From a virus (lineage: Duplodnaviria > Heunggongvirae > Uroviricota > Caudoviricetes), in IMG/VR virus record IMGVR_UViG_2711768037_000018, positions 1 through 18,616 of that record: a DNA stretch of 18,616 nt; one strand, given 5' to 3'. Below are positions 712 to 14,595 of this stretch, piece after piece (position 1 is the stretch's first letter; each line of letters begins with the position of its first letter). The notes beneath the pieces are model-generated. The model saw only the letters and a list, made by a program, of their open reading frames with translations, searched no databases and was not told the DNA's origin. The translations under genes were made by a program, and so were the position numbers.

Positions 712-885
712 TAAATCCTGGTATTTGTAATGACTGGCTCTTATCTCAACGCAGCCCCTTACCGCGCGCCAGATGCTCAATATCAAGCATCAGCAATGAG
801 ATGTTTAATCTGGATTCACTCCAGAAGTGATCACCACCCTGTCTACAGAGCCAGATGTGAAGGATGATGAGTAAAATTATCGCTA

Positions 886-1353
886 TCATCGAAGGCATTG
901 CGTCCTAATGTATTCCTGAAGCGTTCTCAGTGCTGTTTGGTCGCGGATAATTCCGTCCCGGATATCGAGAACGTTTCGTCCAGCAACTGGAGAGAGTTCG
1001 ACGGTGGCATCATTGCCCATGCCGGAGGCGCTGGAGGTTTCGGCAGAGGATGGCACAGGGCATTTTCCTTTGACGAGCACCCTGCCACCATTATCAAGCT
1101 TCCGCAGAAGAGCATCATTTTCAGCTTTCGCATCAGCTAACTCCTTCGTGTATTTTGCATCGAGCGCAGCAACATCACGTTGGCGCACCTGCATGTCAGT
1201 AATTGTCGAGTTCGCCAGCTTCAGTTCTCTGGCATTTTTGTCGCGCTGCTCTTTGTAGGCGATGGCGTTATCACGGTAATGATTAACAGCCCATAACAGG
1301 CAGACGATGATGCAGATAACCAGAGCGGAAATAATCGCGGTGACTCTGCTCAT
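886..1353 (-). CDS. Rz: Rz i-spanin (inner-membrane spanin subunit)
   Basis: 155 aa with N-terminal TM helix and coiled-coil body; immediately follows R endolysin with overlapping stop/start; close match to lambda Rz from memory. Confidence 0.9.
927..1133 (-). CDS. Rz1: Rz1 o-spanin (outer-membrane lipoprotein), embedded in Rz in a different frame
   Basis: 68-aa ORF inside Rz, out of frame; lipobox-like VAGCSS, proline-rich [11 protein letters not shown] typical of Rz1. Confidence 0.8.
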
Positions 1354-1826
1354 ACCTCAATCTCTCTGACCGTTCCGCCAGCCTCTTTGAATTTTGCAAT
1401 CAGGTTGTCAGCCTTATGCTCGAACTGACCATAACCAGCACCCGGCAGTGAAGCCCAGATATTGCTGCAACGGTCAATTGCCTGACGAATATCACCGCGA
1501 TCAATCATCGGTAAAGCGCCACGCTCTTTAATCTGCTGCAATGCCACAGCGTCCTGGCTTTTCGGAGAGAAGTCTTTCAGGCCAAGCTGCTTACGATAGG
1601 CATCCCACCAACGGGAAAGAAGCTGGTAGCGCCCGGCTGCTGTTGATTTGAGTTTTGGGTTTAGCGTGACAAGTTTGCGAGGGTGATCGGAGTAATCAGT
1701 GAATAGCTCTCCGCCTACAATGACGTCATAACCATGATTTCTGGTTTTCTGACGTCCGTTATCAGTTCCCTCTGACCACGCCAGCATATCGAGGAACGCC
1801 TTACGTTGATTATTGATTTCCACCAT
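1350..1826 (-). CDS. R: Endolysin R (lytic transglycosylase)
   Basis: 158 aa [39 protein letters not shown]..., essentially lambda R as recalled. Confidence 0.95.
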
Positions 1827-2133
1827 CTTCTACTCCGGCTTTTTTAGCAGCGAAGCGTTTGATAAGCGAACCAATCGAGTCAGTACCGATGTAGCCGATG
1901 AACACGCTCGTTATATAAGCGAGATTGCTACTTAGTCCGGCGAAGTCGAGAAGGTCACGAATGAACCAGGCGATAATGGCGCACATCGTTGCGTCGATTA
2001 CTGTTTTTGTAAACGCACCGCCATTATATCTGCCGCGAAGGTACGCCATTGCAAACGCAAGGATTGCCCCGATGCCTTGTTCCTTTGCCGCGAGAATGGC
2101 GGCTAACAGGTCATGTTTTTCTGGCATCTTCAT
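1810..2133 (-). CDS. S: Holin/antiholin S (class I holin with dual start)
   Basis: 107 aa starting [10 protein letters not shown] (Met1/Met3 dual-start motif of lambda S107/S105); overlaps R start. Confidence 0.95.
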
Positions 2134-2424
2134 GTCTTACCCCCAATAAGGGGATTTGCTCTATTTAATTAGGAATAAGGTCGATTACTGATAGAACAAA
2201 TCCAGGCTACTGTGTTTAGTAATCAGATTTGTTCGTGACCGATATGCACGGGCAAAACGGCAGGAGGTTGTTAGCGCAACCTCTTGCCACCCGCTTTCAC
2301 GAAGCCAGCCATTGAGCTGGTTTTCTTTTATGCAAAGCACACCGCACCGTAGCCACAGCGGATAAGGTGATTATTTTTGTCTGTCTGGTATTTGGTTTGA
2401 TGTGCTTTCAGAAAGGCCGTGCTT

Positions 2425-2463
2425 AAAACGCAAAAAGCCCCGAGCTATTAACTCAGGGCTTTA
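2425..2463 (-). terminator. tR'-like intrinsic terminator about 30-60 nt downstream of the pR' start
   Basis: Minus-strand RNA: GCCCUGAG-UUAAUAG-CUCGGGGC (8-bp stem, one G-U) followed by UUUUUGCGUUUU. Confidence 0.6.
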
Positions 2464-2495
2464 TTTAACGAGTGCATTTATCCATCGTTGAGTCA

Positions 2496-2524
2496 AATTT
2501 ACCCAATTTTATTCAATAAGTCAA
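2496..2524 (-). promoter_or_regulatory. Late promoter pR' with Q-utilisation (qut) region
   Basis: Minus strand reads TTGACT-N17-TAAATT followed by TGACTCAACGATGG, matching lambda pR' -35/-10 and the initial transcribed pause region as recalled; about 78 nt downstream of the Q stop. Confidence 0.7.
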
Positions 2525-2566
2525 TATTATGCCGTTAATATGTTGCCATCCGTGGCAATCATGCTG

Positions 2567-3190
2567 CTAACGTGTGACCGTATTCAAAATGCTGTCTGCG
2601 ATTGACTCTTCTTTGTGGCATTGCACCACCAGAGCGTCATACAGCGGCTTAACAGTGCGTGACCAGGTGGGTTGGGTAAGATTTGGGATTAGCATCGTCA
2701 CAGCGCGATATGCGGCGCTTGCTGGCATCCTTGAATAGCCGACACCTTTGCATCTTCCGCATTCTTTCTCAACAACTCTCCCCCACTGCTCTGTTTTTGC
2801 TATATCAACCGCACGGCCTGTACCGTGACAATCTCTGCATCTTGCGCCAGGCGTCGCGGCACTACGGCAATAATCCGCATAAGCGAATGTTGCGAGCACT
2901 TGCAGTACCTTTGCCTTAGTATTTCCTTCAAGCTTTGCCACACCACGGTATTTCCCCGATACCTTGTGTGCAAATTGCATCAGATAGTTGATAGCTTTTT
3001 GTTTGTCATTCTGGCTGAGTTCGTGCTTGCCGCAGAATGCAGCCATACCGAATCCGGCTTGTGATTGCGCCATCCCCATAGCAGCCATCACATCAGTACC
3101 GGAAAGAGAGTCAGAAGCCGTGGCCCGTGGTGAGTCGCTCATCATCGGGCTTTTTGGCGAATGAAATTTAGCTACGCTTTCGAGTCTCAT
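2567..3190 (-). CDS. Q: Late gene antiterminator Q
   Basis: 207 aa MRLESVAKFHSPKSPMMSDSPRATASDSL..., near-identical to lambda Q as recalled, including the Cys-rich zinc-binding region. Confidence 0.95.
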   Translation of the reverse strand: MRLESVAKFHSPKSPMMSDSPRATASDSLSGTDVMAAMGMAQSQAGFGMAAFCGKHELSQNDKQKAINYLMQFAHKVSGKYRGVAKLEGNTKAKVLQVLATFAYADYCRSAATPGARCRDCHGTGRAVDIAKTEQWGRVVEKECGRCKGVGYSRMPASAAYRAVTMLIPNLTQPTWSRTVKPLYDALVVQCHKEESIADSILNTVTR

Positions 3191-3375
3191 CGTCTTCCCC
3201 TCTTGCCCTGTTTGACCATCAGGACGCCGTTAACTATTACATGACGCTCGCCTTTGCTGTCTCGGTTGTACTTGAGCACTGTTCCTCTTGCGCAGGAAAG
3301 CATCCTCGCCACTTCGGTCTGATTGCCTCGTGTCTGGATAAGAAGCTCTGGTATCGTTTGAATTGTGGCGTTCAT
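3187..3375 (-). CDS. ninH: NinH-like small DNA-binding protein
   Basis: 62 aa; NQTEVAR-L-C-RGTV-KY ... H-IVN-VLMV pattern matches lambda NinH; ATGA start/stop overlap with rusA and Q. Confidence 0.75.
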   Translation of the reverse strand: MNATIQTIPELLIQTRGNQTEVARMLSCARGTVLKYNRDSKGERHVIVNGVLMVKQGKRGRR

Positions 3376-3734
3376 GCGTTCTCCAGTTCGGTGATTTTTA
3401 TTCCAAGCCGTCCGCCTGGTACTTTCACACCACGAATTACGCGAATGTCATCGAATTGCTCGTCGTCTTCCGCAAATCCGGCATGGATAAGGGAGTCGAG
3501 TAAACCCTTCAGGATGTTATCTAGGTCGCGGCGGCGGGAGTCTGGAACGTCTGCGATTACTTTGATGCGGAGTCGTGATTTGGTGAAAATATCTAACTTG
3601 AGTTGGTGGATGATTTGCTGAACGTCTTTTCGGTATTTCTGGCCTTTATCGCTGATGTAGTATTGGCTTCCCCGTCTTCGCCAGTAGGTATTCACCGACG
3701 GCGGGTATGGAAGCACAAACTGATATTCGTTCAT
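3372..3734 (-). CDS. rusA: Holliday junction resolvase RusA
   Basis: 120 aa; LPYPPSVN..., RRRDLDN and AGF..DD motifs characteristic of the RusA family. Confidence 0.9.
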   Translation of the reverse strand: MNEYQFVLPYPPSVNTYWRRRGSQYYISDKGQKYRKDVQQIIHQLKLDIFTKSRLRIKVIADVPDSRRRDLDNILKGLLDSLIHAGFAEDDEQFDDIRVIRGVKVPGGRLGIKITELENA

Positions 3735-4021
3735 GACTTAATCTTCCCCTCCTTCAGCAGTATCGCCTGCGTCCTGATCACGCCTTCGAGGTGGTAAAGT
3801 CTGGCGTCTTTGTTGTCGAGGTTATGGGTGCGTCGGTCGATCTCCGCGTGGCAGTCACTACAAGCCCATGCGCCGATCAGGTCGTCAGGCTTCATTCCCG
3901 TTCCGCAAATTCCAGCCATCCGGTAATGTGCCAGAACTGTAGTTTCAGGATTGCCATTGCATACGCCGTAAATACGTACCTGGCATTCTCTGTTGCGCGC
4001 TTCTTTGCGCAGGTTAGCCAT
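3731..4021 (-). CDS. ybcO: YbcO-like DUF1364 protein (predicted metal-binding nuclease)
   Basis: 96 aa MANLRKEARNRECQVRIYGVCNGNPETTVLAH...CSDCHAEIDRR; resembles E. coli DLP12 YbcO, which also sits directly upstream of rusA. Confidence 0.8.
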   Translation of the reverse strand: MANLRKEARNRECQVRIYGVCNGNPETTVLAHYRMAGICGTGMKPDDLIGAWACSDCHAEIDRRTHNLDNKDARLYHLEGVIRTQAILLKEGKIKS

Positions 4022-4743
4022 TAAGCAGCCTCCCCTGTTACTTTCAGCATTCCGTTATCGAGCAGCTTTCTGGTCAGCCACTGTTGACCACGCCCGGTGA
4101 TTTTTGTGGTGAACGATATCTGTATTCCGTGATTTGTGTTGACTGCTGTTTCTTTCACTGTGAAATAGCCGCGATCCATATATTCCTGCATTGGCACATT
4201 GCGCCGGGAACCTGAAGCAATAAGGATTTTGTGATCGCGCATCCACGCAAACAGTTTGTTTGGACCAATTCCAACAACCTTTGCAAAGTTTCCAATCAAA
4301 ATTCCACTGGCCTCGCCAACGCGATCGGCAAACTCAACTTTAGGTGCGGCAATTGCGAGCTGGTTTTCCAGTTGCATTTTCTGCTCAGCAAGGTCAGCAG
4401 CAAGGCGCAACGCTTCTGGTAGCGTTTTTGGGATATTAACCGCAGATTCTTCAAGCTCTCGCCAACGGTCAACAAGGCGAGCGGTGAATTCCGGCGACAA
4501 CTGGGCAACAACGACAATACTGTCTCGCTTACCTTGTTCGCCTTCGAAGACGTAATGCTCGTACTGAACATTGAACCCTAAGTTATTGATTCTTCCGGAA
4601 ACCTCAATTTGAGGAAGCCGGATAACACCATTTTTAGCCAGCGTTTCGATGGTACGTTTCACATTGTCATGACGCTTACCAACCAACTCAGCAATTTCAA
4701 TGCTTGTCATTTTGATGGCATTGCCATTCATTAACTCATTCAT
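4021..4743 (-). CDS. Phage antirepressor-like protein (N-terminal Rha domain + C-terminal KilAC/ANT domain)
   Basis: 240 aa; N-terminus MTSIEIAELVGKRHDNVKRTIETL (Rha signature); C-terminal region ...NFAKVVGIGPNKLFAWMRDHKILIASG... typical of KilAC domain. Occupies the position of ninG in lambda. Confidence 0.85.
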   Translation of the reverse strand: MNELMNGNAIKMTSIEIAELVGKRHDNVKRTIETLAKNGVIRLPQIEVSGRINNLGFNVQYEHYVFEGEQGKRDSIVVVAQLSPEFTARLVDRWRELEESAVNIPKTLPEALRLAADLAEQKMQLENQLAIAAPKVEFADRVGEASGILIGNFAKVVGIGPNKLFAWMRDHKILIASGSRRNVPMQEYMDRGYFTVKETAVNTNHGIQISFTTKITGRGQQWLTRKLLDNGMLKVTGEAA

Positions 4744-4906
4744 CGTCTTCTTCCTCGTACATTGAGCTATTCGGATCGCTCATCAGTTCTGCGCAGCAGT
4801 GCTCACACACGTGAACTTCCAGCACATGCAGCTTCTGACCGCAGTTAGCGCACGTTAAAGCTCGCTCGACGCTTTCTTGTTCGTAACTTCGATTTGGGTC
4901 AATCAC
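4736..4906 (-). CDS. ninF: NinF-like small Cys-rich protein (GTG start; alternative ATG at 4928-4930)
   Basis: C-terminal portion of the 153-aa track [59 protein letters not shown] matches lambda NinF; GTG preceded by GAGGAA; GTGA overlap with ninE stop. Confidence 0.75.
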   Translation of the reverse strand: MIDPNRSYEQESVERALTCANCGQKLHVLEVHVCEHCCAELMSDPNSSMYEEEDDE

Positions 4907-5079
4907 CTTGTTTTCCTCATGCGGTTCCATTTGGCCTGTAACAGCCCGTAGACATAATCGAATGTCTTTACCTGGCTTTCTGTGGGGATTGGTTTCTTGC
5001 GGGATCTGGTGCGTTTGGTAGGAGTAAAAATCAGGTTGTCTAACGCTATTTGAGTAATGCTTCGTCGCTGTATCGCCAC
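4903..5079 (-). CDS. ninE: NinE-like protein (58 aa, putative GTG start; not in ORF track)
   Basis: Hand translation of minus strand gives (V)[57 protein letters not shown], similar to lambda NinE (..RRQRRSIT..LPTKRTRNKPKPIP..VKTF..ARKTR); GGAGGA precedes the GTG with a short spacer. Confidence 0.55.
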
Positions 5080-5219
5080 ACGTCCTCCTTTTCCTGCGGT
5101 AGTGGTAACACCCCTGTTGGTGTTCTTTCACACCGGAGACACCATCGATTCCAGTAAGGTTGATTTGGTCGGAAGCGGTTATCTTCTTTGCATTCACCGC
5201 ACCGATAACATCGCATCAT
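5046..5219 (-). CDS. ninD: NinD-like zinc-ribbon protein (57 aa)
   Basis: [56 protein letters not shown]; start ATG overlaps ninB stop (ATGA); the 77-aa track ORF is an upstream extension into ninB. Confidence 0.7.
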
Positions 5220-5656
5220 GCTGCCCGGTCTCCCCATCTTGCTTTCCACTCCAGAGCCAGTCGCGCTTCGTCTGACCACTTAACGCCACGCTCTGTACCG
5301 AATGCCTGTATAAGCTCTAATAGCTCCGCAAATTCGCTTACACGCATCCTGCTGGTTGACTGGCCTATTACCACAAAGCCATTCCCGGCAAGGTTAGGAA
5401 CAACATCCTGCTGCTTTAATGCTGCGGTAAACACACACTTCCAGCTTTCTGCATCCAGCCAGCGACCATGCCATTCAACCTGACGAGAGACGTCACCAAG
5501 GCAAGCCCAAAGCTTTCGATTCTGGTCTAAGCTGCGGTTGCGTTCCTGAATGGTTACTACGATTGGTTTGGTTGGGTCTGGAAGAATTTGCTGTACCGCG
5601 TGAATAGCGTTTTGCTGATGTGCTGGAGATCGAATTTCAAAGGTTAGTTTTTTCAT
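5216..5656 (-). CDS. ninB: NinB recombination protein (Orf family)
   Basis: 146 aa from [50 protein letters not shown]..., essentially lambda NinB; SD GGGAGAGGGAAG upstream. Confidence 0.9.
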
Positions 5657-5732
5657 GACTTCCCTCTCCCCCAAATAAAAAGGCCTGCGATTACCAGCAG
5701 GCCTGTTATTAGCTCAGTGATGTAGATGGTCA

Positions 5733-7169
5733 TCAGAATCCTCCTTTCTTCTTGGACTGCGGTTCCTCACGTTCACGGCGGCGCATTTCAGCAGACTGTT
5801 GGTCTGTGTCATAAATAGCGCCATTTGCCTGAATGCAATACACCGTGCCGGTATTGCCATGACGATTGAGGCGAAGGATTAGTTCGGTTTCACCAGGAGG
5901 AACGCTGTCATCAAAAGCACCTTCACGATGGATCCCCACCCAATAATCGCAATCCTGTTCAATCTGCCCTGTATCTCGTGAGTCACTTGGTAATGGGCGT
6001 TTATTGGTTCGGCTTTCCAGTGCGCGGTTAAGCTGTGTCAGAAGCACAACAACGCAATCAAGCTCTTTGGCAAGGTTCTTCAGTCCTTTGGTGATCATGC
6101 CGTAAGCAAGGTCGTTGCGATCGGCCTTTTCAGCGGTCATTAGTGTCAGGTAATCGACCAGAATCATGCCAACACATCCTTTTTCTCGCTTGATTCGACG
6201 GCTTTCGCTGACGATTTGAGCCAGAGATAATCCCGGCGTGTCGTCGATGTAAAGCAGGTCGATTTCACTCAAGCGATTGGCTGTTTCGATCGCCCTGTTG
6301 AAGTCACCATCGTAATCACCCTGATAGCCGTCATCAGCGTCATTTGTCGCCGGAAGGTAAAAAATATTCGGGTTAACACCTGACTTCTGTCCTACCAGTT
6401 TTTCCAGTATCTGGTCACCTGGCATTTCAAGGCTGAACATCAGAGCGGGCTTTTTCTCATGCACTGCGCAGTTGATTGCCATCTGGCTGTATAGGGTTGT
6501 CTTGCCCATCTTAGGGCGAGCGCCAATGACAAACAGAGAGCCTTTCACCAGGCCTTTCGGTGACAGCATCCTGTCCAGCGATGGGATCCCTGTGCTCATT
6601 CCTCGTTGTTCGCCTGACGGGTCAAATCGCTTCTCAAGGTCGCTAACCCAGTCTTCCATGACCTCACCAAATGAGCGAAGGCCGCGACGCGATCCGGTTT
6701 TTGCATGGTCTGTCAGTTGCGTGAAAATCGCCTGAATAGCTTCGTACTTCTGCGTTGCAGTCATTCCGTTGCGGGAATAGAGCAATTCCGTCGCTTCAGT
6801 CATGCGGTTGATGGCGTAGCGTTCCATTGCGGTTTCACGAACCTGCATTGCATAGGCAACGATGTTTGCTGCGCTTGGCGTGTTCTTTGCGATCTCAGCG
6901 ATATAAGCAAAACCTCCAACAGACGCCGTTAACGATTTGCGCTCCAGTTCATCGAAAAGCGTCAGCCCATCTACTGGCTTTTGCTCCCGGTGCATTCTGG
7001 TTATTTCTTCGAAAAGGATTTTGTGTGGTCGGCTGTAAAATGAATCAGGCTTCAGCATCGCCAGAACTTTCCGGACGCGCTCACTGCTGTCATCATCCAG
7101 AAGCAATCCACCAATCACCGCCTGCTCTGCCTCGATGCTATGGGGCGGCGCATAAAAATTATCGGTCAT
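5733..7169 (-). CDS. Replicative DNA helicase, DnaB family (P22 gene 12-like)
   Basis: About 478 aa from ATG 7167-7169; Walker A GARPKMGKTT, DnaB-like N-terminal domain (SIEAEQAVIGGLL) and RecA-like core; the track start at 7184 is a GTG extension. Confidence 0.9.
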   Translation of the reverse strand: MTDNFYAPPHSIEAEQAVIGGLLLDDDSSERVRKVLAMLKPDSFYSRPHKILFEEITRMHREQKPVDGLTLFDELERKSLTASVGGFAYIAEIAKNTPSAANIVAYAMQVRETAMERYAINRMTEATELLYSRNGMTATQKYEAIQAIFTQLTDHAKTGSRRGLRSFGEVMEDWVSDLEKRFDPSGEQRGMSTGIPSLDRMLSPKGLVKGSLFVIGARPKMGKTTLYSQMAINCAVHEKKPALMFSLEMPGDQILEKLVGQKSGVNPNIFYLPATNDADDGYQGDYDGDFNRAIETANRLSEIDLLYIDDTPGLSLAQIVSESRRIKREKGCVGMILVDYLTLMTAEKADRNDLAYGMITKGLKNLAKELDCVVVLLTQLNRALESRTNKRPLPSDSRDTGQIEQDCDYWVGIHREGAFDDSVPPGETELILRLNRHGNTGTVYCIQANGAIYDTDQQSAEMRRREREEPQSKKKGGF

Positions 7170-8049
7170 CGTGTTCACCCTCACGAACTTTCAGGTAGGT
7201 ATTATCGTTAAGCAGGAAATCAAATCCCTTTTTGTGCCAGACGGTTCCGCGTTGATGGTTTGGGCGCTCTTCGAACATCCATCGGCAATTTTCGCCTACG
7301 TAGCTCAAATAATTTCTCCAGTCCTGCATCGTGAACCCATGCCCGTCAAGCTGGCGGGTTATCACTCCGGCTTTGCGCCAGAACGTTCGGATCTGGTTTT
7401 TACGCTTGTCATTCAGTGCGCGGATTCTTGGCGCTTCAGGAAGGATTTCGTGGTAAGCATCGACAACATCCTGACAGCTAACGGAAGGTTTTTTCTTGTC
7501 AGACTTTTTGTCTGCTGTGGCACTCTCTAATACGTCAGTATTAGAGATATTATTTATATTATTGTTTATGGACAACCGTTGGACAACCGTTGGACAATCT
7601 CCGCTGAGAGCCGCGCCATTACTGGTGTTTGCGTTGGACAACCGTTGGACAACCGTTGGACAATTTTTTGCCTGAAAATCGTCATATTTAACGATTGTAA
7701 ACAGGCTAAATTTCTTCCCCATCGCGCAAATATTAAGCATCCCTTTCGACTCAAAAGTCCGTAATAAGCTCCGAACTTTGTTGTCGGGGATGAATGTTTC
7801 TCTGACCAGCGACGGGCGTCCAGTTATCATCTGACCGCGATCAACAGTTATCGGACCGATATCCGTATTGACGACAGTAGATTCGTGATTAGCCTTGAGG
7901 ATTAAGTGAAGCCAAAGATGTACTGCCTGAGAGTCCTTATAGAGCCTGCTGTCCATAAACTGGCGGTGTATAGAGACATACCCCATACTGGATGCCTCCT
8001 GATGTTGTACAGGGTTATGCCTGTAATCAGCTAACTTAACGACGCCCAT
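7159..8049 (-). CDS. Replication initiation protein (lambda O / P22 gp18 functional analogue) containing the origin iterons; alternative start ATG 7984-7986
   Basis: Lies between cII and the helicase; iteron cluster plus AT-rich tract in the middle of the ORF (translated as repeated CPTVVQRLS), as in lambda ori within O; both candidate ATGs have AGGAG-type SDs. Confidence 0.8.
   Translation of the reverse strand: MGVVKLADYRHNPVQHQEASSMGYVSIHRQFMDSRLYKDSQAVHLWLHLILKANHESTVVNTDIGPITVDRGQMITGRPSLVRETFIPDNKVRSLLRTFESKGMLNICAMGKKFSLFTIVKYDDFQAKNCPTVVQRLSNANTSNGAALSGDCPTVVQRLSINNNINNISNTDVLESATADKKSDKKKPSVSCQDVVDAYHEILPEAPRIRALNDKRKNQIRTFWRKAGVITRQLDGHGFTMQDWRNYLSYVGENCRWMFEERPNHQRGTVWHKKGFDFLLNDNTYLKVREGEHDDR
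7521..7663 (-). repeat. Putative replication origin: two clusters of 11-bp direct repeats (GGACAACCGTT x2.5 each) followed on the gene strand by an AT-rich tract
   Basis: Repeats at 7570-7597 and 7636-7663; AT-rich 7521-7569; arrangement mirrors lambda ori (iterons then AT-rich region inside the initiator gene). Confidence 0.7.
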
Positions 8050-8198
8050 GTTTCACTCCTGCTTTGGCTAGTCTGTAAACACCAACAAGGCGCTCTGCGA
8101 ACGCCCTGTTATTTGCTGCGGCTACCACTAATCCCTCAGGTGAATCAGGGTGTCGAATCTCTTCTTTTTCCTGGTATTTCTTACGACGTTTTGTCATA
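8036..8198 (-). CDS. Hypothetical small basic protein (53 aa), between cII and the initiator gene
   Basis: Hand-translated MTKRRKKYQEKEEIRHPDSPEGLVVAAANNRAFAERLVGVYRLAKAGVKHGRR; AGGAG 5 nt upstream of ATG; no recognised homology. Confidence 0.3.
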
Positions 8199-8231
8199 AT
8201 TACTCCTGTGGATTGATCCAGTCTTTCTACA

Positions 8232-8510
8232 TCAGGCCTCGAAGAATTCGCCGTTCTTCGGGGCTTTTTCTTTTGTCAGCATTCTGGCTACTTTCTTAGC
8301 CAGTTCCGCCAACTCCTCGTCTTCAACACCCCACTCCAGCACAGCCAGAAGCATGGCCATCTTTGGGATAAAGCTGTCTTTCCATCGCGAAATTTGCGAT
8401 TCATTGATCCCTAATGCATCAGCAACCTTTCGCTGACCACGTACAGCAATTCGATTTAGGATGTTGCTTGTAATTGCATTCGCTTTCTTGCGAGTACTTG
8501 TAAGTTGCAT
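8232..8510 (-). CDS. cII: CII transcriptional activator
   Basis: 92 aa from internal ATG: MQLTSTRKKANAITSNILNRIAVRGQRKVADALGINESQISRWKDSFIPKMAMLLAVLEWGV..., aligns with lambda CII (..SQISRWKRDWIPKFSMLLAVLEWGV..). Confidence 0.85.
   Translation of the reverse strand: MQLTSTRKKANAITSNILNRIAVRGQRKVADALGINESQISRWKDSFIPKMAMLLAVLEWGVEDEELAELAKKVARMLTKEKAPKNGEFFEA
8236..8274 (+). terminator. Intrinsic terminator on the strand antisense to the cII 3' end (oop-RNA-like terminator)
   Basis: Plus strand: GCCTCGAAGAA-TTCGCCG-TTCTTCGGGGC (11-bp stem with one G-U) followed by TTTTTCTTTT; sits just inside the cII C-terminal codons, as lambda oop does. Confidence 0.6.
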
Positions 8511-8520
8511 ATGTAAGTAT
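8488..8520 (+). promoter_or_regulatory. pRE-like CII-dependent promoter (TTGC-N6-TTGT at -35, AAGTAT -10)
   Basis: TTGCGAGTACTTGTAAGTTGCATATGTAAGTATTTCC closely resembles lambda pRE (TTGCGTTTGTTTGCACGAACCATATGTAAGTATTTCC) as recalled; reads toward cro/cI. Confidence 0.55.
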
Positions 8521-8568
8521 TTCCTTAACAAATAAGAAGTTATGCGCACCAACTGATGCGCGTTGTAT

Positions 8569-8612
8569 TCCCGCATTTCGGCGGGAATGAGGACCATGAC
8601 TGTTAAAGAGCG
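8569..8612 (-). promoter_or_regulatory. nutR: boxA (CGCTCTTTAACA) + boxB hairpin (TCCCGC-CGAAAT-GCGGGA)
   Basis: Between cro and cII on the minus strand; boxA matches the consensus; boxB is identical to the hairpin in nutL. Confidence 0.7.
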
Positions 8613-8619
8613 GTGTTAC

Positions 8620-8844
8620 TTATGCTGCCTGATTCGGTTTTGGAAACAGGTGTGGCAAATCGGGGCGAATTTCGTAAGCCTTGATCTGCCCTCCAGTGGC
8701 GTTAACGATGGCGGTAACTTTCTCTGGAGAGACCAACCCGCCTTTCAGCCATTTGTGTACTGCTGGCTGCGTTACACCACACTTGTCGGCAAGGCGCTTT
8801 TGGCTACCGACAATTTTCAAGGCTCGTTGAATTACTAAATTCAT
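8620..8844 (-). CDS. cro: Cro-like repressor, YdaS-type HTH (74 aa from third in-frame ATG)
   Basis: HTH segment QKRLADKCGVTQPAVHKWLKG and ...ATGGQIKAYEIRPDL resemble the YdaS/Cro family; divergent from cI across an operator region; AGAGG 7 nt upstream of the chosen ATG. Confidence 0.8.
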   Translation of the reverse strand: MNLVIQRALKIVGSQKRLADKCGVTQPAVHKWLKGGLVSPEKVTAIVNATGGQIKAYEIRPDLPHLFPKPNQAA

Positions 8845-8877
8845 GAGCATACCTCTTGTGGTCATTACTTATAACCA

Positions 8878-8906
8878 AAGATAACTCAAGTTATAAAAAA
8901 TAGCAA
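8878..8906 (-). promoter_or_regulatory. pR promoter (TTGCTA-N17-TATCTT on minus strand)
   Basis: -10 overlaps operator 8881-8894, -35 abuts operator 8906-8919, as with lambda pR/OR1/OR2. Confidence 0.5.
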
Positions 8907-8943
8907 TAACCTTTGTTATTTTACTTTGGATAACCGTAGTTAT
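8881..8943. promoter_or_regulatory. OR operator cluster: three 14-bp inverted repeats ATAAC-N4-GTTAT
   Basis: ATAACTCAAGTTAT (8881-8894), ATAACCTTTGTTAT (8906-8919), ATAACCGTAGTTAT (8930-8943), centres about 24 bp apart between divergent cro and cI; pRM-like -10 TAGATT at 8943-8948 precedes the cI ATG by about 7 nt. Confidence 0.65.
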
Positions 8944-8955
8944 AGATTTGTGAGT

Positions 8956-9663
8956 ATGAAAACATTCGCAGAAAGACTAAATGCAGCCATGAGCTCAGCA
9001 GGGGTATCACAATCACAGCTTGCTGACATGGTTGGAATATCTCAGCCAGCCATACAGAAGATGTCGTCCGGTAAAACAAACGGATCTCGCAAGATGGTTG
9101 AATTAGCCAATGCTTTAAAAGTGCGTCCTGAATGGCTTAGTTCTGGTATTGGTGAAATGAGGGATGGTGCACATGAAGAACCATCCAATGTCCGTGAGTC
9201 ATCTTTAAAAGCTGTGGTATGGGAAGACATTAAAAGAAACGATGACGAGTTTGTTGCGTTGCCTCTTCTTAACGTTTCGCTTTCAGCTGGAAGCGGTAGC
9301 TGCGAGCTAGAGGAATCATCGGAGTTCTCTTTGGTTTTCAGAAAGCACTATCTGAAAAAGATGGGAGTATCAGAAAGATCAGCCAAGCTAGTTAGGGTTG
9401 TAGGGCAAAGCATGGAACCAACGCTTCACGATGGCGATGTTGTTGGTGTTAACACGCAAGATACCACAATCAGAGATGGTAAAACCTACGCTATTTGCCA
9501 GTCTGATTTGTTACGAGTAAAAACATTAATCGCCACCCCTACATCGGTGATAATCAGATCAATAAATCGCGAAGAGTACCCGGATGAAGTAATGGATAGA
9601 GATGAATTTCATGAAACCGTAAGGATTATTGGCAGAGTATTCTGGTCGTCTCATAGTTGGTAA
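8956..9663 (+). CDS. cI: CI-type prophage repressor (N-terminal HTH + C-terminal S24 LexA-like autopeptidase domain)
   Basis: 235 aa from ATG 8956 (track start 8926 is a TTG extension); HTH region SQSQLADMVGISQPAIQKM; C-terminal GQSMEPT (catalytic Ser) and downstream Lys; apparently leaderless start like lambda cI from pRM. Confidence 0.9.
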   Translation: MKTFAERLNAAMSSAGVSQSQLADMVGISQPAIQKMSSGKTNGSRKMVELANALKVRPEWLSSGIGEMRDGAHEEPSNVRESSLKAVVWEDIKRNDDEFVALPLLNVSLSAGSGSCELEESSEFSLVFRKHYLKKMGVSERSAKLVRVVGQSMEPTLHDGDVVGVNTQDTTIRDGKTYAICQSDLLRVKTLIATPTSVIIRSINREEYPDEVMDRDEFHETVRIIGRVFWSSHSW

Positions 9664-9703
9664 CCGATAATCAGAAGAAGACTTACGGAAGTGCGGAGGG
9701 ATA

Positions 9704-10000
9704 ATGGAATTTCTGATAGTTTTTGTTGTTGTTTTGGTCATCATTCTTTTTGTTTTGCTAAGCATTAGCAAAAAGCTATCTCAAATGATTGAACATAGCT
9801 CTAATCGCGCAAAAGAAGAAGAGCATCTAATTGATATAAAAGAGATTCTCTCTGATATAAAAATCACATTAGATGAAATAAAATACACAACAGATCTAAT
9901 TGAACAGTATAAAATACCAACCCCAAACGAGAGAAAAGCAATAGATCAATATCGTATTGACTTAGAAATCGACGAAATGCTAAGCAAAAGAAAAGACTAA
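9704..10000 (+). CDS. Hypothetical single-pass membrane protein (98 aa), AT-rich, co-oriented directly downstream of cI
   Basis: N-terminal TM helix EFLIVFVVVLVIILFVLLSI then charged helical region; GGAGGG SD; strongly AT-rich codon usage compared with neighbours; followed by an intrinsic terminator. Confidence 0.7.
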   Translation: MEFLIVFVVVLVIILFVLLSISKKLSQMIEHSSNRAKEEEHLIDIKEILSDIKITLDEIKYTTDLIEQYKIPTPNERKAIDQYRIDLEIDEMLSKRKD

Positions 10001-10004
10001 AAAC

Positions 10005-10034
10005 ACCCGGCCTCAGCGCCGGGTTTTCTTTTCC
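10005..10034 (+). terminator. Intrinsic terminator ending the cI transcription unit
   Basis: CCCGGC-CTCAGC-GCCGGG hairpin followed by TTTTCTTTTCC. Confidence 0.7.
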
Positions 10035-10197
10035 TGCCGTTCACCACCCAATCAACCATCCTCATCATAGACAAGCATCAAGCCAAAGGTAACACCTTCA
10101 CCCCGCACGTAAGCCCTCAAACACCAATCAATCAGCAACATTTACAAAAATAAAATACCTTTGTTATCCATCACTTATAACTTATTTACCATAAAAT

Positions 10198-10239
10198 ATA
10201 AATTAGGTTATTGACCACACCTATAACCTAGGTTATCTT
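10198..10239 (+). promoter_or_regulatory. pL promoter with OL operators (TTGACC-N17-TATCTT; operators ATAAATTAGGTTAT and ATAACCTAGGTTAT)
   Basis: Same ATAAC-N4-GTTAT operator type as OR; perfect palindrome at 10223-10236 overlaps spacer/-10; located upstream of nutL and N. Confidence 0.5.
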
Positions 10240-10284
10240 TAAGCCATCAGCAGGACGCTGGTAGCCAAACGGAACAGATTGGCA

Positions 10285-10326
10285 GGCTCTTTAACATTGA
10301 TGGGATTGTCCCGCCGAAATGCGGGA
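10285..10326 (+). promoter_or_regulatory. nutL: boxA (GGCTCTTTAACA) + boxB hairpin (TCCCGC-CGAAAT-GCGGGA)
   Basis: About 110 nt upstream of N; boxB identical to nutR. Confidence 0.7.
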
Positions 10327-10433
10327 ACCAAAGAGTAGTTGGCTTTGGGGTGACGTGAAGTGCAGCTGCACGACGGCAACCGGAAGATAAGCACCCGGCG
10401 CGTCACCGCCAAAGTCAATCATCGGAGGTCAAC

Positions 10434-10706
10434 ATGACAGTAGTCATTACATATCTGGCTGACGATAACGCCAGAAATCGCCGCAGAGCACGCAGACAGG
10501 CTCAACGTGAACAGGCAATGCAAGAGCAGCGACTGGCACGAAAAATTGCGCTAAAGCTCTCTGGTTGCGTCAGAGCAGATAAAGCAGCATCACTCGGAAG
10601 CCTTCGCTGCAAGAAGGCAGATGAATGCAGTGGAAGTATTTGCCTGCCAAACGTAGCCATTTACGCGGCAGGCTACCGGAAATCAAAACAACTGACGGCG
10701 AGGTAA
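10434..10706 (+). CDS. N: N-type antitermination protein (P22 gene 24-like)
   Basis: 90 aa; arginine-rich motif DNARNRRRARRQAQREQ; C-terminus LPNVAIYAAGYRKSKQLTAR resembles the P22 gp24 C-terminus as recalled; GGAGG SD. Confidence 0.85.
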   Translation: MTVVITYLADDNARNRRRARRQAQREQAMQEQRLARKIALKLSGCVRADKAASLGSLRCKKADECSGSICLPNVAIYAAGYRKSKQLTAR

Positions 10707-10709
10707 GTG

Positions 10710-10934
10710 ATGAATCAGACATACATTCCATCATGCTTGAGAAATCTGCCAAAGCAGAAAGCAAAGCCCCGCAAGCAAGCCATAAAGGACGCTAAGGCAG
10801 AGGTTATTGATCAAGCAATACAATTGCTCAGGGAGGAGTTAAGAAGTGGCAAGCTAGAAGGAATGATGATGCCCTATCAGCGCGGATATCTATCGGCGAT
10901 TAGTAAGTTGGAAGTATTGAAGAGTGAATTATGA
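10710..10934 (+). CDS. Hypothetical protein (74 aa)
   Basis: ORF immediately after N (N stop TAA, then ATG with GAGG SD); basic, helical; no recognised family. Confidence 0.5.
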   Translation: MNQTYIPSCLRNLPKQKAKPRKQAIKDAKAEVIDQAIQLLREELRSGKLEGMMMPYQRGYLSAISKLEVLKSEL

Positions 10935-10996
10935 GCTATCTGGAATTTCCGGATGGTTCATTGTTTTGGCAGCAAACCACTTATTTGAGGTGAGAT

Positions 10997-11467
10997 ATGA
11001 CAATATCATGGAGCGTACCTTTTCCTGAATCAGAAACTGAACATGATGGAATGCCTGTTTTCTGGAGATTCCAGGCGACAGTTGAAGAAGATGGAATCAA
11101 AATATTCGCACTTCAATATATAGCTTTTCATCAGACAGAGCATTATGCATGGTTGGTTCCTGCGCATTGGATTGTTAATTTTAAACCAGCACCAAATCAG
11201 TGGTTACAGGAATGGAAACAAAAGAGAAATAGATATGCAATTAAGAAAGTAGCAAAAAATGCAGAAAGATCTTTTGCATTCCCAACGAAGAAACTTGCCA
11301 TTGAAAGTTTATTGCGCCGGAAGAAATACCATTTAATGAGAATCAAACAAGATTTGGCTGTTGTATCAACTCTTGTTGATGGGATGAAGAATATTGATAC
11401 ATCAACACCAGATATTGAATATAACTTTGGACACAACCAAGAAACAGAAAACTGGGTGTTTTATTAG
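10997..11467 (+). CDS. Hypothetical protein (156 aa), AT-rich
   Basis: Clean ORF with GAGGTGAG SD; AT-rich composition; no recognised motif; occupies the ral/sieB position between N and cIII. Confidence 0.65.
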   Translation: MTISWSVPFPESETEHDGMPVFWRFQATVEEDGIKIFALQYIAFHQTEHYAWLVPAHWIVNFKPAPNQWLQEWKQKRNRYAIKKVAKNAERSFAFPTKKLAIESLLRRKKYHLMRIKQDLAVVSTLVDGMKNIDTSTPDIEYNFGHNQETENWVFY

Positions 11468-11571
11468 TACGAATAAGCACTGTGTATTCATTCCAACGAG
11501 TGAATACACGGAGCAATGTCGCTCGTAACTAAACAGGAGCCGACTTGTTCTGATTATTGGAAATCTTCTTT

Positions 11572-11599
11572 GCCCTCCAGTGTGAGGGCAATTTTTTTT
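11572..11599 (+). terminator. Intrinsic terminator (tL-like) inside the early-left operon
   Basis: GCCCTC-CAGTGT-GAGGGC hairpin followed by AATTTTTTTT. Confidence 0.65.
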
Positions 11600-11612
11600 G
11601 ACGGAGTAAACG

Positions 11613-11861
11613 ATGATAAAAACTGATTATCCTGCAGAACTTAAACAAAAAGTAATAACAGCAATTAAATGCTCTTTTATCTCATGTCGTACAGATGAAG
11701 AACGACATGTCGTTGAGTGTGCAATTGTCGAGTTTCTCACAGCGATGGAATTTACCGCTGCAGAATCAATAGATGTATTAAAGCAATCAGACGGAAATGA
11801 TATTGAAACGGATGATGTTATTGACCGACTAATAAAATCATTCGAAGAAGAAATAGAGTAG
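11613..11861 (+). CDS. Hypothetical small acidic protein (82 aa)
   Basis: GGAG SD; about 20 Asp/Glu versus 8 Lys/Arg; followed by a GC-rich hairpin (about 11862-11885). Confidence 0.6.
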   Translation: MIKTDYPAELKQKVITAIKCSFISCRTDEERHVVECAIVEFLTAMEFTAAESIDVLKQSDGNDIETDDVIDRLIKSFEEEIE

Positions 11862-11944
11862 CCGCCTGAGCGCGGCTTTACCGCATACCAATAATGCTTC
11901 ACGAGAGGCATTTTCGTTATGCAATCAAATATAAGGAGTTACCC

Positions 11945-12079
11945 ATGATGCACTTTCAGCTCGCGGGTAGCGGCGTCATGTCCGCTTTCTACCCGCACGA
12001 ATCTGAATTATCACGCCGAGTTAAACAATTAATCAGAGCAGCAAAGAAACAACTGGAGGCGTTATGCGCAATGAAATAG
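11945..12079 (+). CDS. cIII: CIII-like protein (putative FtsH inhibitor, 44 aa)
   Basis: MMHFQLAGSGVMSAFYPHESELSRRVKQLIRAAKKQLEAL resembles lambda CIII (MQYAIAGWPVAGCPSESLLERITRKLRDGWKRLIDIL); AAGGAG SD 6 nt upstream; the track ORF from 11894 is an upstream extension. Confidence 0.6.
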   Translation: MMHFQLAGSGVMSAFYPHESELSRRVKQLIRAAKKQLEALCAMK

Positions 12080-12215
12080 CCATCAATCACCAGATGCTTC
12101 GTGCAGCACAAAACAAAGCAGTAATAGCCAGATTTATTGGTGATTCCAAAATGTGGCTTGAAGCAAATAAAGCGATGAAATCAGCGATCAACATTCCGTG
12201 GTATCGCAGGAAATG
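12063..12215 (+). CDS. kil: Kil-like host-killing protein (50 aa, not in ORF track)
   Basis: MRNEIAINHQMLRAAQNKAVIARFIGDSKMWLEANKAMKSAINIPWYRRK; ARFIGDSKMW resembles lambda Kil ATFIGDEKMF; GGAGG SD; directly follows cIII as in lambda. Confidence 0.6.
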
Positions 12216-12297
12216 AGTTTTACAGATAACTGGTCAGACGAAGAATTCATTCGTCAGATGAACAAAATGCTCAATCAGCACAAAGAACAGGAGAAAG

Positions 12298-12609
12298 ATG
12301 ATGATTCTGACTCTGAATGATAAGCGTGAAATATCGCAAATCATCGCAAGTTTTACCGATGATGATTACGAACGAATCAACAGTGAAGTTGATCGCCTCT
12401 GCAAACGTTGCGACCCAATAAGCGAAATGCTTCGCTCATATAAACCAGATGAACACACTAAGGACGCTATCGACTGGCTGGAAGATGATGACTGTAACTA
12501 TCAGGAAAAAGCCGCTGAATGGTTCTGGGATGCAATAACCGAAAGAGTTAAGGCTGAATATGCCTTCGCAATATTCAAGCGCAGACACATTTTTGGAGAA
12601 GCAGCATGA
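12298..12609 (+). CDS. Hypothetical protein (103 aa) immediately upstream of recT
   Basis: AGGAGA SD; stop overlaps recT start (ATGA); acidic, Cys-containing; no recognised family. Confidence 0.6.
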   Translation: MMILTLNDKREISQIIASFTDDDYERINSEVDRLCKRCDPISEMLRSYKPDEHTKDAIDWLEDDDCNYQEKAAEWFWDAITERVKAEYAFAIFKRRHIFGEAA

Positions 12610-13508
12610 GCAATATCGTTGAATTCGTTAAACAGCAGGAGCAGTTATTCTGCGGAGCATTGACTGAACAGACGGTGACATGGGCTAAGGAAAGCCAGTT
12701 TGCAATTCAGTATTTCCAGAAAAACGATTACCTGGCTAAAACGGCACTGGCAAATCCAACCAGCGCACAGAACGCCATCATCAATGTTGCGGCGATCGGC
12801 ATCACCTTAAACCCGGCCAGCAAACTTGCTTATCTAGTTCCGCGCGACGGCATGGTTTGCCTTGATATCAGCTATATGGGATTACTTCACCTTGCACAGT
12901 CGACAGGATCAATTAAGTGGGGGCAATGCAAACTGGTGTACTCAAACGACACCTATGAATCAAACGGCCTTGATTCAGCACCAACCCACAAATACAACGC
13001 ATTTGGTGAGCGAGGCTCTATTGTTGGTGGTTATTGTACGGTTAAAACAGCAGATGGTGACTACCTCACTGAAGAAATGAGTCTGGCAGAAATTAAAGCT
13101 GTGGAAGCAACGAGCAAGGCAAAGAATGGACCGTGGAAGACATTCTGGGAAGAGATGGCGCGTAAAACAATAGTTAAACGCGCCAGCAAATACTGGCCTA
13201 AAGCCCAGCGACTGGATAATGCCATTCACCTGCTTAACGAAGATGAAGGTATGCATCAGGAACCAGTTATGCCGCACAAATCAGAGGAAGATATCCGCGA
13301 AGATGAACGGAAACGCCAGCAGGAAATAATGGATAAAGCACAACTTCTTTGCGATGAAATGGCTCAGGCAGAAAACATGGATGATTTGAAGCGATATTTT
13401 GCAGAAGCATATCGCCTGACATCTGGAATGAAATTGCAGCAGAACGTACAAGCCATTTACATAGAATGCAAAGCGAAACTGGAGGTTGCCAGTGAGCAAA
13501 CTGTATGA
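12606..13508 (+). CDS. recT: RecT-family single-strand annealing recombinase
   Basis: 300 aa; ...NPASKLAYLVPRDG... and NGPWKTFWEEMARKTIVKRASKYWP closely parallel E. coli RecT (NGPWVTHWEEMAKKTAIRRLFKYLP). Confidence 0.9.
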   Translation: MSNIVEFVKQQEQLFCGALTEQTVTWAKESQFAIQYFQKNDYLAKTALANPTSAQNAIINVAAIGITLNPASKLAYLVPRDGMVCLDISYMGLLHLAQSTGSIKWGQCKLVYSNDTYESNGLDSAPTHKYNAFGERGSIVGGYCTVKTADGDYLTEEMSLAEIKAVEATSKAKNGPWKTFWEEMARKTIVKRASKYWPKAQRLDNAIHLLNEDEGMHQEPVMPHKSEEDIREDERKRQQEIMDKAQLLCDEMAQAENMDDLKRYFAEAYRLTSGMKLQQNVQAIYIECKAKLEVASEQTV

Positions 13509-13974
13509 AATAGCCAATGAATACGCAAAGCTGATGGATTCAGATTTAGAGCCAGAGATGATTGCTGACACAATAGAAGGCATGGAAGGAGAATTTACCG
13601 ATAAAATAGAGCAACTTCTTGCCATTATTAAAAATGAATCTGGTTATGCTGAACGCCTCAAGGACGAGGCAAAGTCACTGAATGAACGAGCAGCAGTAAT
13701 TCAAAATAAGATTGATAGCATTATGGCATATATAGCGTCATCGCTTGAAATGGTTGGCAAGAAAAAGATTCGAGCAGGTATTCACCAGGTAACAATCCGC
13801 AAACCGTCAGAAACTGTAGAAATCATCGACTCAAGCGCCATTCCTCCTGAATACGTTGAGTTTGAAACGACAATTAAAGCCGACAAGTTGGCAATCAAAC
13901 ACCAACTAAAAGCAGGAATAAATATCCCCGGCGCTCAACTCAAAGTTGGGAAACCTTCACTTCTTATCAAATAA
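13492..13974 (+). CDS. Hypothetical coiled-coil protein (160 aa from GTG), possibly Siphovirus-Gp157-like
   Basis: GGAGG SD 6 nt before GTG; overlaps recT stop; helical/charged composition; family assignment is from memory and uncertain. Confidence 0.55.
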   Translation: MSKLYEIANEYAKLMDSDLEPEMIADTIEGMEGEFTDKIEQLLAIIKNESGYAERLKDEAKSLNERAAVIQNKIDSIMAYIASSLEMVGKKKIRAGIHQVTIRKPSETVEIIDSSAIPPEYVEFETTIKADKLAIKHQLKAGINIPGAQLKVGKPSLLIK

Positions 13975-13985
13975 CGGTATCGCCT

Positions 13986-14300
13986 ATGAAAAAGACTCCA
14001 TGGGAGAAATGGGAAGTCGATTTCTTGCGCGAAGTAGCGGCGACAATGCCAGTTGAAGTTATCGCTGAAAAACTGGAAAGGACTGAAAAAGCAGTTATGG
14101 CGAAAGCAACAAGGATTGGCGCTGACATTGTTAGCCGACTTCGTGGAAGACGCTGGACAAGAGCCGAAGTATCACTTTTCGGTAAGTTCTCCGCAGAAGA
14201 AATAGCAATTGCAACCTGCCGCTCAATTTATTCAGTAAGAGCTATGCGATACAAGCTAAAAAAACTCGATGAAGAAAGAGCAGGCATACGAATAAATTAA
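13986..14300 (+). CDS. Hypothetical protein (104 aa) with two tandem ~45-aa repeats, possible DNA-binding
   Basis: Repeats WEKWEVDFLREVAATMPVEVIAEKL... and RWTRAEVSLFGKFSAEEIAIATCRS...; basic C-terminus. Confidence 0.55.
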   Translation: MKKTPWEKWEVDFLREVAATMPVEVIAEKLERTEKAVMAKATRIGADIVSRLRGRRWTRAEVSLFGKFSAEEIAIATCRSIYSVRAMRYKLKKLDEERAGIRIN

Positions 14301-14316
14301 CATGGAGTAATTAACA

Positions 14317-14595
14317 ATGAAGCTAAACATCGACCTCGGAAAATACGTTATTACCGGAACCAAGCACGATCTGATTCTTAGCGAAAGAGGAATTATCAAA
14401 GAAGGCGAGAATGCAGGGAAAGAAACACTAAGTCGTATCGGTTATTACAGCAAGTTTGAGCATCTGGTTAAAGAGTTATGCAACCGTGAAATCATGTTAT
14501 CTCAGGCGCAGACGCTACAGGATATTCAGCAGCATATCTGGACTTTAGGTGAGTCACTTAGCATGGCTATTGACCAGTTCGTGGAGAGTAAATAA
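14317..14595 (+). CDS. Hypothetical protein (92 aa)
   Basis: Clean ORF with GGAG upstream; no recognised family. Confidence 0.55.

Follow-up and report, generated by a model that had tools for sequence, protein, structure and literature searches.

The question raised by this locus is whether a set of short direct repeats in the middle of a replication gene acts as the origin of the prophage that carries it and, if so, how closely that origin follows the plan of the one in phage lambda. The locus lies in a stretch of viral DNA of 18,616 nucleotides (nt), positions 1 to 18,616 of IMG/VR record IMGVR_UViG_2711768037_000018, the whole of which we refer to as the window. A first-pass annotation made from the letters alone had marked two clusters of an 11-base-pair (bp) unit within an open reading frame (ORF) likened to lambda O, followed by an AT-rich tract, and had proposed that they mirror the lambda origin with a different repeat sequence and set the replication specificity of the prophage. 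Our analysis leads us to regard the repeats as very probably the replication origin of a lambdoid prophage replication module of the Sf6/HK620/HK022/L type, lying inside the initiator gene. The sequence-based tests all support the origin-like reading, namely the match of the initiator to PHROG 345, the DnaB-type helicase gene beside it, a rep_origin annotation that already exists at the homologous place, selection acting at the level of DNA, an iteron type that goes with the N-terminal and not the C-terminal domain, and a lambda-like order of elements.

A repeat search of the window found both clusters where they had been placed. On the plus strand, TGGACAACCGT occurs as four exact copies in the 18.6 kilobases (kb), at 7569, 7580, 7635 and 7646, with a truncated copy, TGGACAAT, after each pair, and the 30-mer TGGACAACCGTTGGACAACCGTTGGACAAT is present twice in identical form (7569-7598 and 7635-7664). 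Read on the coding strand of the initiator gene, each 30-bp block comprises three copies of TTGTCCAAC phased at 11 bp. The elements of the putative origin are, in the order in which the gene is read:

7631..7663, minus strand: iteron cluster 1, with units TTGTCCAACGG (7663 to 7653), TTGTCCAACGG (7652 to 7642) and TTGTCCAACGC (7641 to 7631)
7598..7630, minus strand: inter-cluster spacer of 33 bp; its length (three unit lengths) is kept while its sequence varies freely
7565..7597, minus strand: iteron cluster 2, with units TTGTCCAACGG (7597 to 7587), TTGTCCAACGG (7586 to 7576) and TTGTCCATAAA (7575 to 7565)
7548..7569, minus strand: AT tract, coding strand ATAAACAATAATATAAATAATA, with A or T at 21 of 22 positions
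7524..7547, unstranded: perfect palindrome, TCTCTAATAC-TGAC-GTATTAGAGA on the coding strand

Successive units start 11, 11, 44, 11 and 11 bp apart, and the clusters are offset by 66 bp from start to start, which agrees with the gap of about 38 bp that had been reported between them from the cluster edges as drawn at the time. The unit on the coding strand is TTGTCCAACGG, all six units have TGTCCAAC as their 8-bp core, and the final unit of cluster 2 ends after CCA in every lineage. Given the 11-bp phasing and the 66-bp offset, the six cores all lie on roughly one face of the helix. A match to the 30-mer, with up to three mismatches allowed, appeared in none of 200 dinucleotide-preserving shuffles of the window, and the 18.6 kb hold no second 30-mer or exact 11-mer outside the array. 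Elsewhere, a unit with one mismatch, TGGATAACCGT, lies at 8927-8937 on the plus strand, at the listed TTG start of a repressor-like ORF; this copy is probably due to chance, since the window contains 8 matches to the unit with two mismatches allowed where 3.6 +/- 1.8 are expected.

Other readings of the repeats were tried and set aside. The sequence CAACGGTTG at the unit junctions is dyad-like, but the symmetry is lost in the HK620, Klebsiella and Pantoea types; TTGTCCAAC agrees with the DnaA box TTATCCACA at only 6 of 9 positions, compared by eye; and as a promoter the combination TGGACA-18-GACAAT scores 9/12, in a region with 4 promoter-like matches against 2.0 +/- 1.5 in shuffles, which is not significant. 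This weak sigma-70-like match (TGGACA, 18 nt, GACAAT) is made by each iteron cluster on the antisense strand. Single-strand folding of the iteron region was no better than that of shuffles (z = -1.4).

Both clusters lie within the initiator ORF and, as had been noted at first pass, encode the peptide CPTVVQRLS twice, at residues 130-138 and 152-160 of the protein. The peptide repeat is a by-product of the DNA array, because three 11-bp units amount to 33 bp, or 11 codons, and an offset of 66 bp leaves the frame unchanged. Within a cluster, the three units are read in three different frames, 11 not being a multiple of 3, and a coding constraint therefore cannot explain why the cores should be frozen. 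We examined variation in seven divergent genes of the window type, which are 70-94% identical in the part coding for the N-terminal domain. Third-codon sites vary at 81% in the N-terminal domain and at 70% in the C-terminal domain (170 of 226 together), compared with 0 of 16 within the six cores (Fisher p = 1e-9 against the two domains). Counting every codon position, 2 of 48 core sites vary, as against 8 of 12 in the 3-nt linkers between cores and 21 of 36 in the spacer, taken here as 7595-7630 and so including 3 nt of unit 4 (p = 2e-9 against the cores). Of 19 sites in the AT tract only 1 varies, compared with 46% in the flanking domains (p = 2e-4). In a separate set of 80 near-identical prophages, which carry 37 variants of a 186-bp stretch, the changes are concentrated in the linkers and spacer, and the cores, AT tract and palindrome are almost untouched. 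These patterns argue for purifying selection on the iteron cores and AT tract that acts on the DNA itself, independently of reading frame. The linker peptide fares differently: in one natural variant of 292 amino acids, P0039, a single 11-bp unit has apparently been lost and the frame restored later, and the spacer is read as QTPVMARLSAE instead of ANTSNGAALSGD. Because the spacer is there translated in another frame, the amino-acid sequence of the linker is dispensable.

The comparison was then extended to homologues from phages (L, ST160, HK620, ENT47670, and phages of Klebsiella, Pantoea and Yersinia) and to 31 prophages of 36-95% identity from a GTDB scan of one-genome-per-species bacterial assemblies, which forms the diverse set; a scan of IMG/VR with the family profile returned relatives of 92-100% identity only and was used for polymorphism, not diversity. 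A common layout, carrying at least seven different core sequences, was found in about 34 of the 36 homologues (36-95% identity, Enterobacterales). A conserved KYD(D/E)(F/Y)Q motif is followed by two triplets of 11-bp units with a 33-bp spacer between them, then by about 20-25 bp of AT tract and a perfect palindrome, whose arms measure 9-10 nt and whose 4-nt centre reads T(G/A)A(C/A). A motif caller cleanly recovered the 11, 11, 44, 11, 11 spacing in 26 of the 36, and the fixed 66-bp register fits all homologues except L107 and L108. The core types, of which CCA is the sole part common to all, are distributed by lineage as follows:

TGTCCAAC: the window, phage L and ENT47670
TTACCAGCA: HK620
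RTGCCAACA: Klebsiella type
TTACCAACA: Pantoea
a mix of the Klebsiella and Pantoea types: Yersinia
TGTCCAGCC and AATCCAAR: further types

Two homologues turned up under unexpected labels. An initiator homologue of 86% identity with an identical TGTCCAAC origin lies on a 799-kb contig of an assembly labelled Bacteroidota (L092, Chryseobacterium sp. 18061), and one of 57% identity lies on a 501-bp contig labelled Actinomycetota (L118, Catenulispora yoronensis); both look like mislabelling or contamination, not true host range.

Downstream of the iterons on the coding strand, the first-pass annotation had described a single AT-rich tract of roughly 50 bp. The low G+C is there (22-28% over 7520-7579), but the tract is composite, consisting of the 22-bp AT tract, with its one G or C, and then the palindrome, which had not been singled out and whose arms of 10 nt (7524-7533 and 7538-7547) flank a centre of 4 nt. 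The AT tract is the predicted DNA-unwinding element, and the palindrome is a conserved third element of the putative origin. Folded as single-stranded DNA, it gives z scores of -4.5 and -4.25 on the two strands. In a gap-free alignment of 14 distinct family sequences, all 10 of its 10 pairs have changed on both sides and 97% of cells remain paired, values that were reached in none of 500 shuffles; shifting the partner column by 1-3 positions brings pairing down to 28-51%. Perfect Watson-Crick symmetry is thus kept through at least 10 different sequences in the family, and the encoded peptide changes freely (NTDVLE, LTNVRE, STDVEE, ISKDIE). Across the 14 sequences the inner nine pairs contain no G-T or G-U pair, and for this reason a constraint on both DNA strands, in the form of a cruciform, a hairpin in unwound DNA or a dyad-symmetric protein site, fits better than a single RNA hairpin.

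An RNA hairpin is nevertheless what the best surviving of the rival explanations calls for, in which the palindrome and AT tract together form a hairpin-plus-T-run intrinsic terminator of antisense transcription, or a hairpin in the message from pR. A consensus scan did score 7524-7547 with its tail TATTATTTAT as a weak terminator-like site on the plus strand, the record of phage L carries automatic predictions of antisense terminators nearby (723-765 and 770-816 in L003, where the palindrome that they overlap lies at about 727-750), and in lambda, too, a palindrome precedes a T-rich run on the antisense strand. However, the stem would have only 3 G-C pairs, its T-tail is broken by A's, and the conservation of the AT tract far exceeds what a U-run needs. 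Nor is there a convincing antisense promoter downstream of the palindrome in the gene, where only the weak promoter-like matches made by the iterons are seen. With the missing G-U pairs also counting in favour of a two-strand constraint, we consider this explanation unlikely. As to what a structural palindrome would do, one possible role, which we put forward tentatively, is that of a structure-forming origin element, extruded as a hairpin or cruciform as the AT tract melts, which could mark or stabilise the site of helicase loading. To our knowledge, the role of the palindrome in the origins of lambdoid phages has never been settled; if the palindrome is indeed structural, then this family offers a natural covariation series with which to probe it.

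The element, its position and its interpretation as an origin are already known, from GenBank records of the early 2000s and a paper of 2020. The initiator gene of the window shares 99.4% nucleotide identity with gene 43 of Sf6 and is 99.2-99.7% identical to genes in HK106, mEp234, IME10, Sf6, HK75, HK629 and others. The GenBank entry for Sf6 (AF547987) gives 28385-28480 as a rep_origin, with the description 'putative; repeat region reminiscent of the phage lambda origin; similar to phage HK620'. This feature maps exactly to window 7569-7664, and rep_origin features stand at the homologous place in HK620 (NC_002730, gene O) and in phage L (MW013502, gene 18). For phage L, the six 11-bp repeats TGTCCAACGGA in gene 18 have been called 'likely the origin', with genetic data cited that indicate an origin inside a replication region exchangeable as a whole (PMC8022706). 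The window thus carries what defines a module of the Sf6/HK620/HK022/L type, both in having a homologue of Sf6 gene 43 and L gene 18 followed by a DnaB-type helicase gene and in having six mid-gene 11-bp repeats in two groups that coincide with an annotated rep_origin. Sf6 shows essentially no difference from the window, with two single-base changes in its inter-core linkers. Phage L has the core TGTCCAAC and the spacing of the window, its gp18 sharing 82% amino-acid identity with the window initiator. HK620 shares the layout and, almost unchanged, the C-terminal half but differs in its core, TTACCAGCA, and its N-terminal domain. The origin annotations in all three take in the repeats only, without the AT tract or palindrome. 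Relative to these sources our additions are modest and incremental: the frame-independent conservation, the catalogue of iteron cores, the covarying palindrome, the variation in cluster number, and homology of the initiator to G38P rather than to lambda O.

The genes and domains on which the origin reading bears are as follows:

7159..8049, minus strand: replication initiator gene, 296 amino acids, the equivalent of Sf6 gene 43, HK022 gene 54 and phage L gene 18
7660..7992, minus strand: N-terminal domain, about residues 20-130, predicted iteron-binding domain by homology to G38P of phage SPP1
7162..7480, minus strand: C-terminal domain, about residues 190-295, predicted helicase-recruiting domain (PHROG 24933)
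5733..7169, minus strand: gene for a phage replicative helicase of the DnaB family (P22 gene 12/Sf6 gene 44 type), its start overlapping the initiator stop

The whole length of the initiator is covered by its match to PHROG 345, 'replication initiation O-like' (E = 1.3e-84), and searches of the protein against Pfam and NCBIfam returned no family at threshold, only a weak match to DUF7376. An AlphaFold2 model, built on an alignment of 18 sequences of 72-86% identity, gave a predicted local distance difference test (pLDDT) score of about 80 in the C-terminal domain, the sole part modelled with confidence, and values below 50 for the N-terminal domain and for the linker, residues 108-188; the origin repeats thus fall in a central linker that is probably disordered. 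The helicase scores 583 bits against TIGR03600 phage_DnaB (cut-off 499) and also matches Pfam DnaB and DnaB_C; its ATG at 7169 was taken from the Sf6 annotation.

The mechanism that we propose draws on homology and takes lambda and SPP1 as its paradigms. The N-terminal domain would bind the six in-phase cores as an ordered oligomer and distort the DNA by bending or wrapping it, the AT tract beside the iterons would melt, and the C-terminal domain would directly recruit the DnaB-type helicase that the phage itself encodes in the next gene, after which host primase and polymerase would take over. Direct recruitment is proposed because there is no separate loader gene, of the lambda P or G39P type, between initiator and helicase, the stop of the one at 7159 overlapping the start of the other at 7169 with no intervening ORF.

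The more alike two homologues are in their N-terminal domains, the more alike they tend to be in their iteron consensus (Spearman rho = 0.43; nominal p = 3e-25, the 528 pairs not being independent), and no such correlation holds for the C-terminal domain (rho = 0.003). HK620 essentially matches the window in its C-terminal half, in the end of its AT tract and in its palindrome but has a different N-terminal domain and different iterons, and elsewhere one iteron type is paired with three different palindromes and C-terminal domains (L099, L110, L119). The HK620 junction and these combinations suggest that the N-terminal domain and iterons move together, as do the C-terminal domain and palindrome, with crossovers in the conserved AT tract; the palindrome seems to change in step with the module of C-terminal domain and helicase, not with the iterons. 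The N-terminal domain with the iteron core is what a specificity module would look like, and the C-terminal domain with the palindrome and helicase what a second module would look like. Such a two-module pattern parallels the classical genetics of lambda O.

The number of clusters also varies. Initiators of 274, 296 and 318 amino acids differ by exact steps of 22 amino acids (66 bp), corresponding to one, two and three clusters. Proteins that illustrate this variation are P0002, P0036, P0041 and P0097; three-cluster DNA is found in L088 (IMGVR_UViG_2579778784_000007, 1501-2454), and a 277-amino-acid form from Salmonella is the one-cluster version of the L type. Sequenced phages with the module have exactly two clusters in 26 of 26 cases, each spanning 375 nt against a three-cluster query of 441 nt, and one- and three-cluster forms were seen in bacterial or metagenome assemblies only. 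With P0039 included, the linker is seen to tolerate a gain or loss of 22 amino acids as well as a change of reading frame.

Variation of this kind has to be weighed when asking whether the repeats could bind the initiator and yet serve mainly to regulate or titrate it, through autoregulation, 'handcuffing' or inhibition of replication, with initiation at another site. Prophages with one or three clusters do persist, lambda iterons that are cloned and supplied in trans can be inhibitory to rep-lambda phages (PMC3349717), and in SPP1 a further origin, oriR, lies some 13 kb away from the one inside gene 38 (PMC6316719). However, a conserved AT tract and palindrome directly beside the iterons make up the structure of an unwinding site and not that of an operator, the window holds no further copy of the 30-mer or exact 11-mer, and the genetics cited for phage L indicate an origin within the replication region (PMC8022706); we therefore regard a purely regulatory array as very unlikely. 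That the repeats have no cis function at all, being a product of slippage or duplication whose peptide is useful or harmless, is hardly credible even though they encode a low-confidence, probably disordered linker and vary in number by unequal crossing over, for the 8-bp core is kept in three frames without synonymous change amid third-codon sites that are 70-81% variable (a test that comes close to refuting this idea), the peptide differs by lineage (CPTVVQRLS, VPADYQQIT, VPTECQQSA and others) where the 11-bp phasing and 66-bp offset are kept, and P0039 reads its spacer in another frame.

Several observations nonetheless weigh against the interpretation of the array as an origin bound by the initiator. 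DNA binding by the N-terminal domain is predicted solely through homology to G38P, because this domain was modelled with low confidence, Foldseek found no PDB match to the model at E <= 0.001 (only short insignificant ones, several of them to small DNA-binding proteins such as TubR, BlaI and PerR), and a profile search of solved structures with the initiator gave no match at E <= 1. The sameness of the six units could stem from gene conversion instead of selection, and the association of iteron type with N-terminal domain could arise from physical linkage alone. The one- and three-cluster variants occur in bacterial genomes, and the exact 3+3 array is thus not strictly required for a prophage to persist. 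L107, from a Leclercia metagenome-assembled genome, and L108, from Silvania hatchlandensis, have mostly 12-bp spacing and another cluster offset: their ATTACCA units, spaced 12, 12 and 12, 11, are located about 48-150 nt after the KYDEY anchor, with a 68-bp offset, 21 extra nt before the first unit and clusters read in different frames. Finally, our literature searches returned no functional study of an origin of this type, and the annotations all read 'putative' or 'likely'. Set beside the rest of the evidence, these points leave the origin inside the initiator gene as the reading that we favour.

The surroundings of the module are those of a lambdoid phage. Upstream of the initiator lie a 53-amino-acid ORF (PHROG 1331), a CII-like gene and a divergent S24/helix-turn-helix repressor gene, and the gene order is that of the right operon of a lambdoid phage, as in the lambda pR operon. 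Taken as a whole, the window has its best relatives among coliphages of the HK620-like and mEp types, which are 95-96% identical to it across about half of its length. Two further observations were made in this neighbourhood. An oop-like antisense RNA unit occupies 8190-8275 on the plus strand, where ACTGGATCAATCCACAGGAGTAATTATGACAAA, a 33-nt oop promoter and 5'-end motif (PMC3349717), matches exactly at 8190-8222 and a strong hairpin followed by TTTTCTTTT (8234-8266, plus strand) overlaps the 3' end of the cII-like gene. At 9853-9895, a little downstream of the repressor gene on the plus strand, are two tandem 21-bp A-rich units, TGAAATAAAAAACACAACAGA, with a match of 77%.

The module is widespread: among 5,426 complete E. 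coli genomes, 145 contain at least 80% of a 201-bp stretch of the origin, and many P22-like and lambda-like phages have the module, Shiga toxin (Stx) phages of the VT2-Sakai type among them. Knowledge of the origin and of what determines its specificity is of use in predicting cross-activation or interference among co-resident prophages, and helps also in the design of replicons and in the reading of defence systems that sense origins, of which Lamassu, sensing the phage origin at the lambda iterons, is an example (PMC12663957).

How far, then, does the locus mirror lambda ori? In both, the origin lies inside the initiator gene between its two domains, and when the lambda sequence is read with the same tools its coding strand gives the same order of iterons, A-rich tract and palindrome with a 4-nt centre. 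The context is shared too, with cII, the initiator and a second replication gene in the pR operon. The resemblance claimed at first pass therefore stands for the order of elements within the linker and fails for their make-up and for the protein. The A-rich tract of lambda is about 40 bp long and its palindrome has 12-nt arms; its four iterons of about 19-20 nt are dyad-symmetric and spaced 20, 24 and 23 bp apart, whereas the window has six 11-bp direct repeats in two triplets. Lambda O belongs to Pfam Phage_rep_O, PF04492 (E = 5.7e-36), to which the window initiator gave no match at E <= 0.01 with the whole protein or at E <= 5 with the N-terminal domain alone, and an hhalign comparison of a profile of seven family members with lambda O returned a probability of 0.06%. 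By these comparisons the initiator would be a functional analogue of lambda O with no detectable homology to it. The second genes differ as well: lambda P, entered as 'DNA replication protein' in its record, is a loader for the host DnaB, and its counterpart in the window is a DnaB-type helicase. Two clusters of 11-bp direct repeats also make up parC, the centromere of plasmid R1, on which a small DNA-binding protein forms a helical array; the analogy is one of architecture only.

Gene 18 and gene 12 of P22 likewise form a module of initiator and DnaB-type helicase with repeats inside the initiator gene (PMC8022706). The repeats of P22 gene 18 are four of about 20 bp and of different sequence, contrasted with those of L along with lambda O, and L gp18 is only 25% identical to P22 gp18 (PMC8022706).

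For the N-terminal domain, homology was found instead with a protein of phage SPP1, whose G38P (gp38) is a characterised origin-binding protein that binds the direct repeats of oriL inside gene 38, beside an AT-rich unwinding element (PMC6316719). Residues 20-130 of the family profile align by hhalign with residues 2-115 of G38P (probability 97.8%, E = 7.5e-13, 28% identity), and tblastn with the initiator reaches SPP1 gene 38 (E = 5e-6) and 'DnaD-like' proteins of Staphylococcus phages; Pfam Phage_rep_org_N gives a sub-threshold hint only, on the HK620 homologue (E = 0.094). The two systems part company beyond this domain, in that the C-terminal domain of G38P is Phg_2220_C (PF09524, 2e-20), where that of the window has no Pfam match, and in that SPP1 has a separate helicase loader, G39P, and the second origin oriR (PMC6316719), where the window has no G39P-type gene between initiator and helicase. 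In SPP1 gene 38, as in the window, short direct repeats of unrelated sequence follow just after the part coding for the N-terminal domain, and the homology to G38P provides the strongest, if indirect, support for the prediction that the N-terminal domain of the window initiator binds the repeats.

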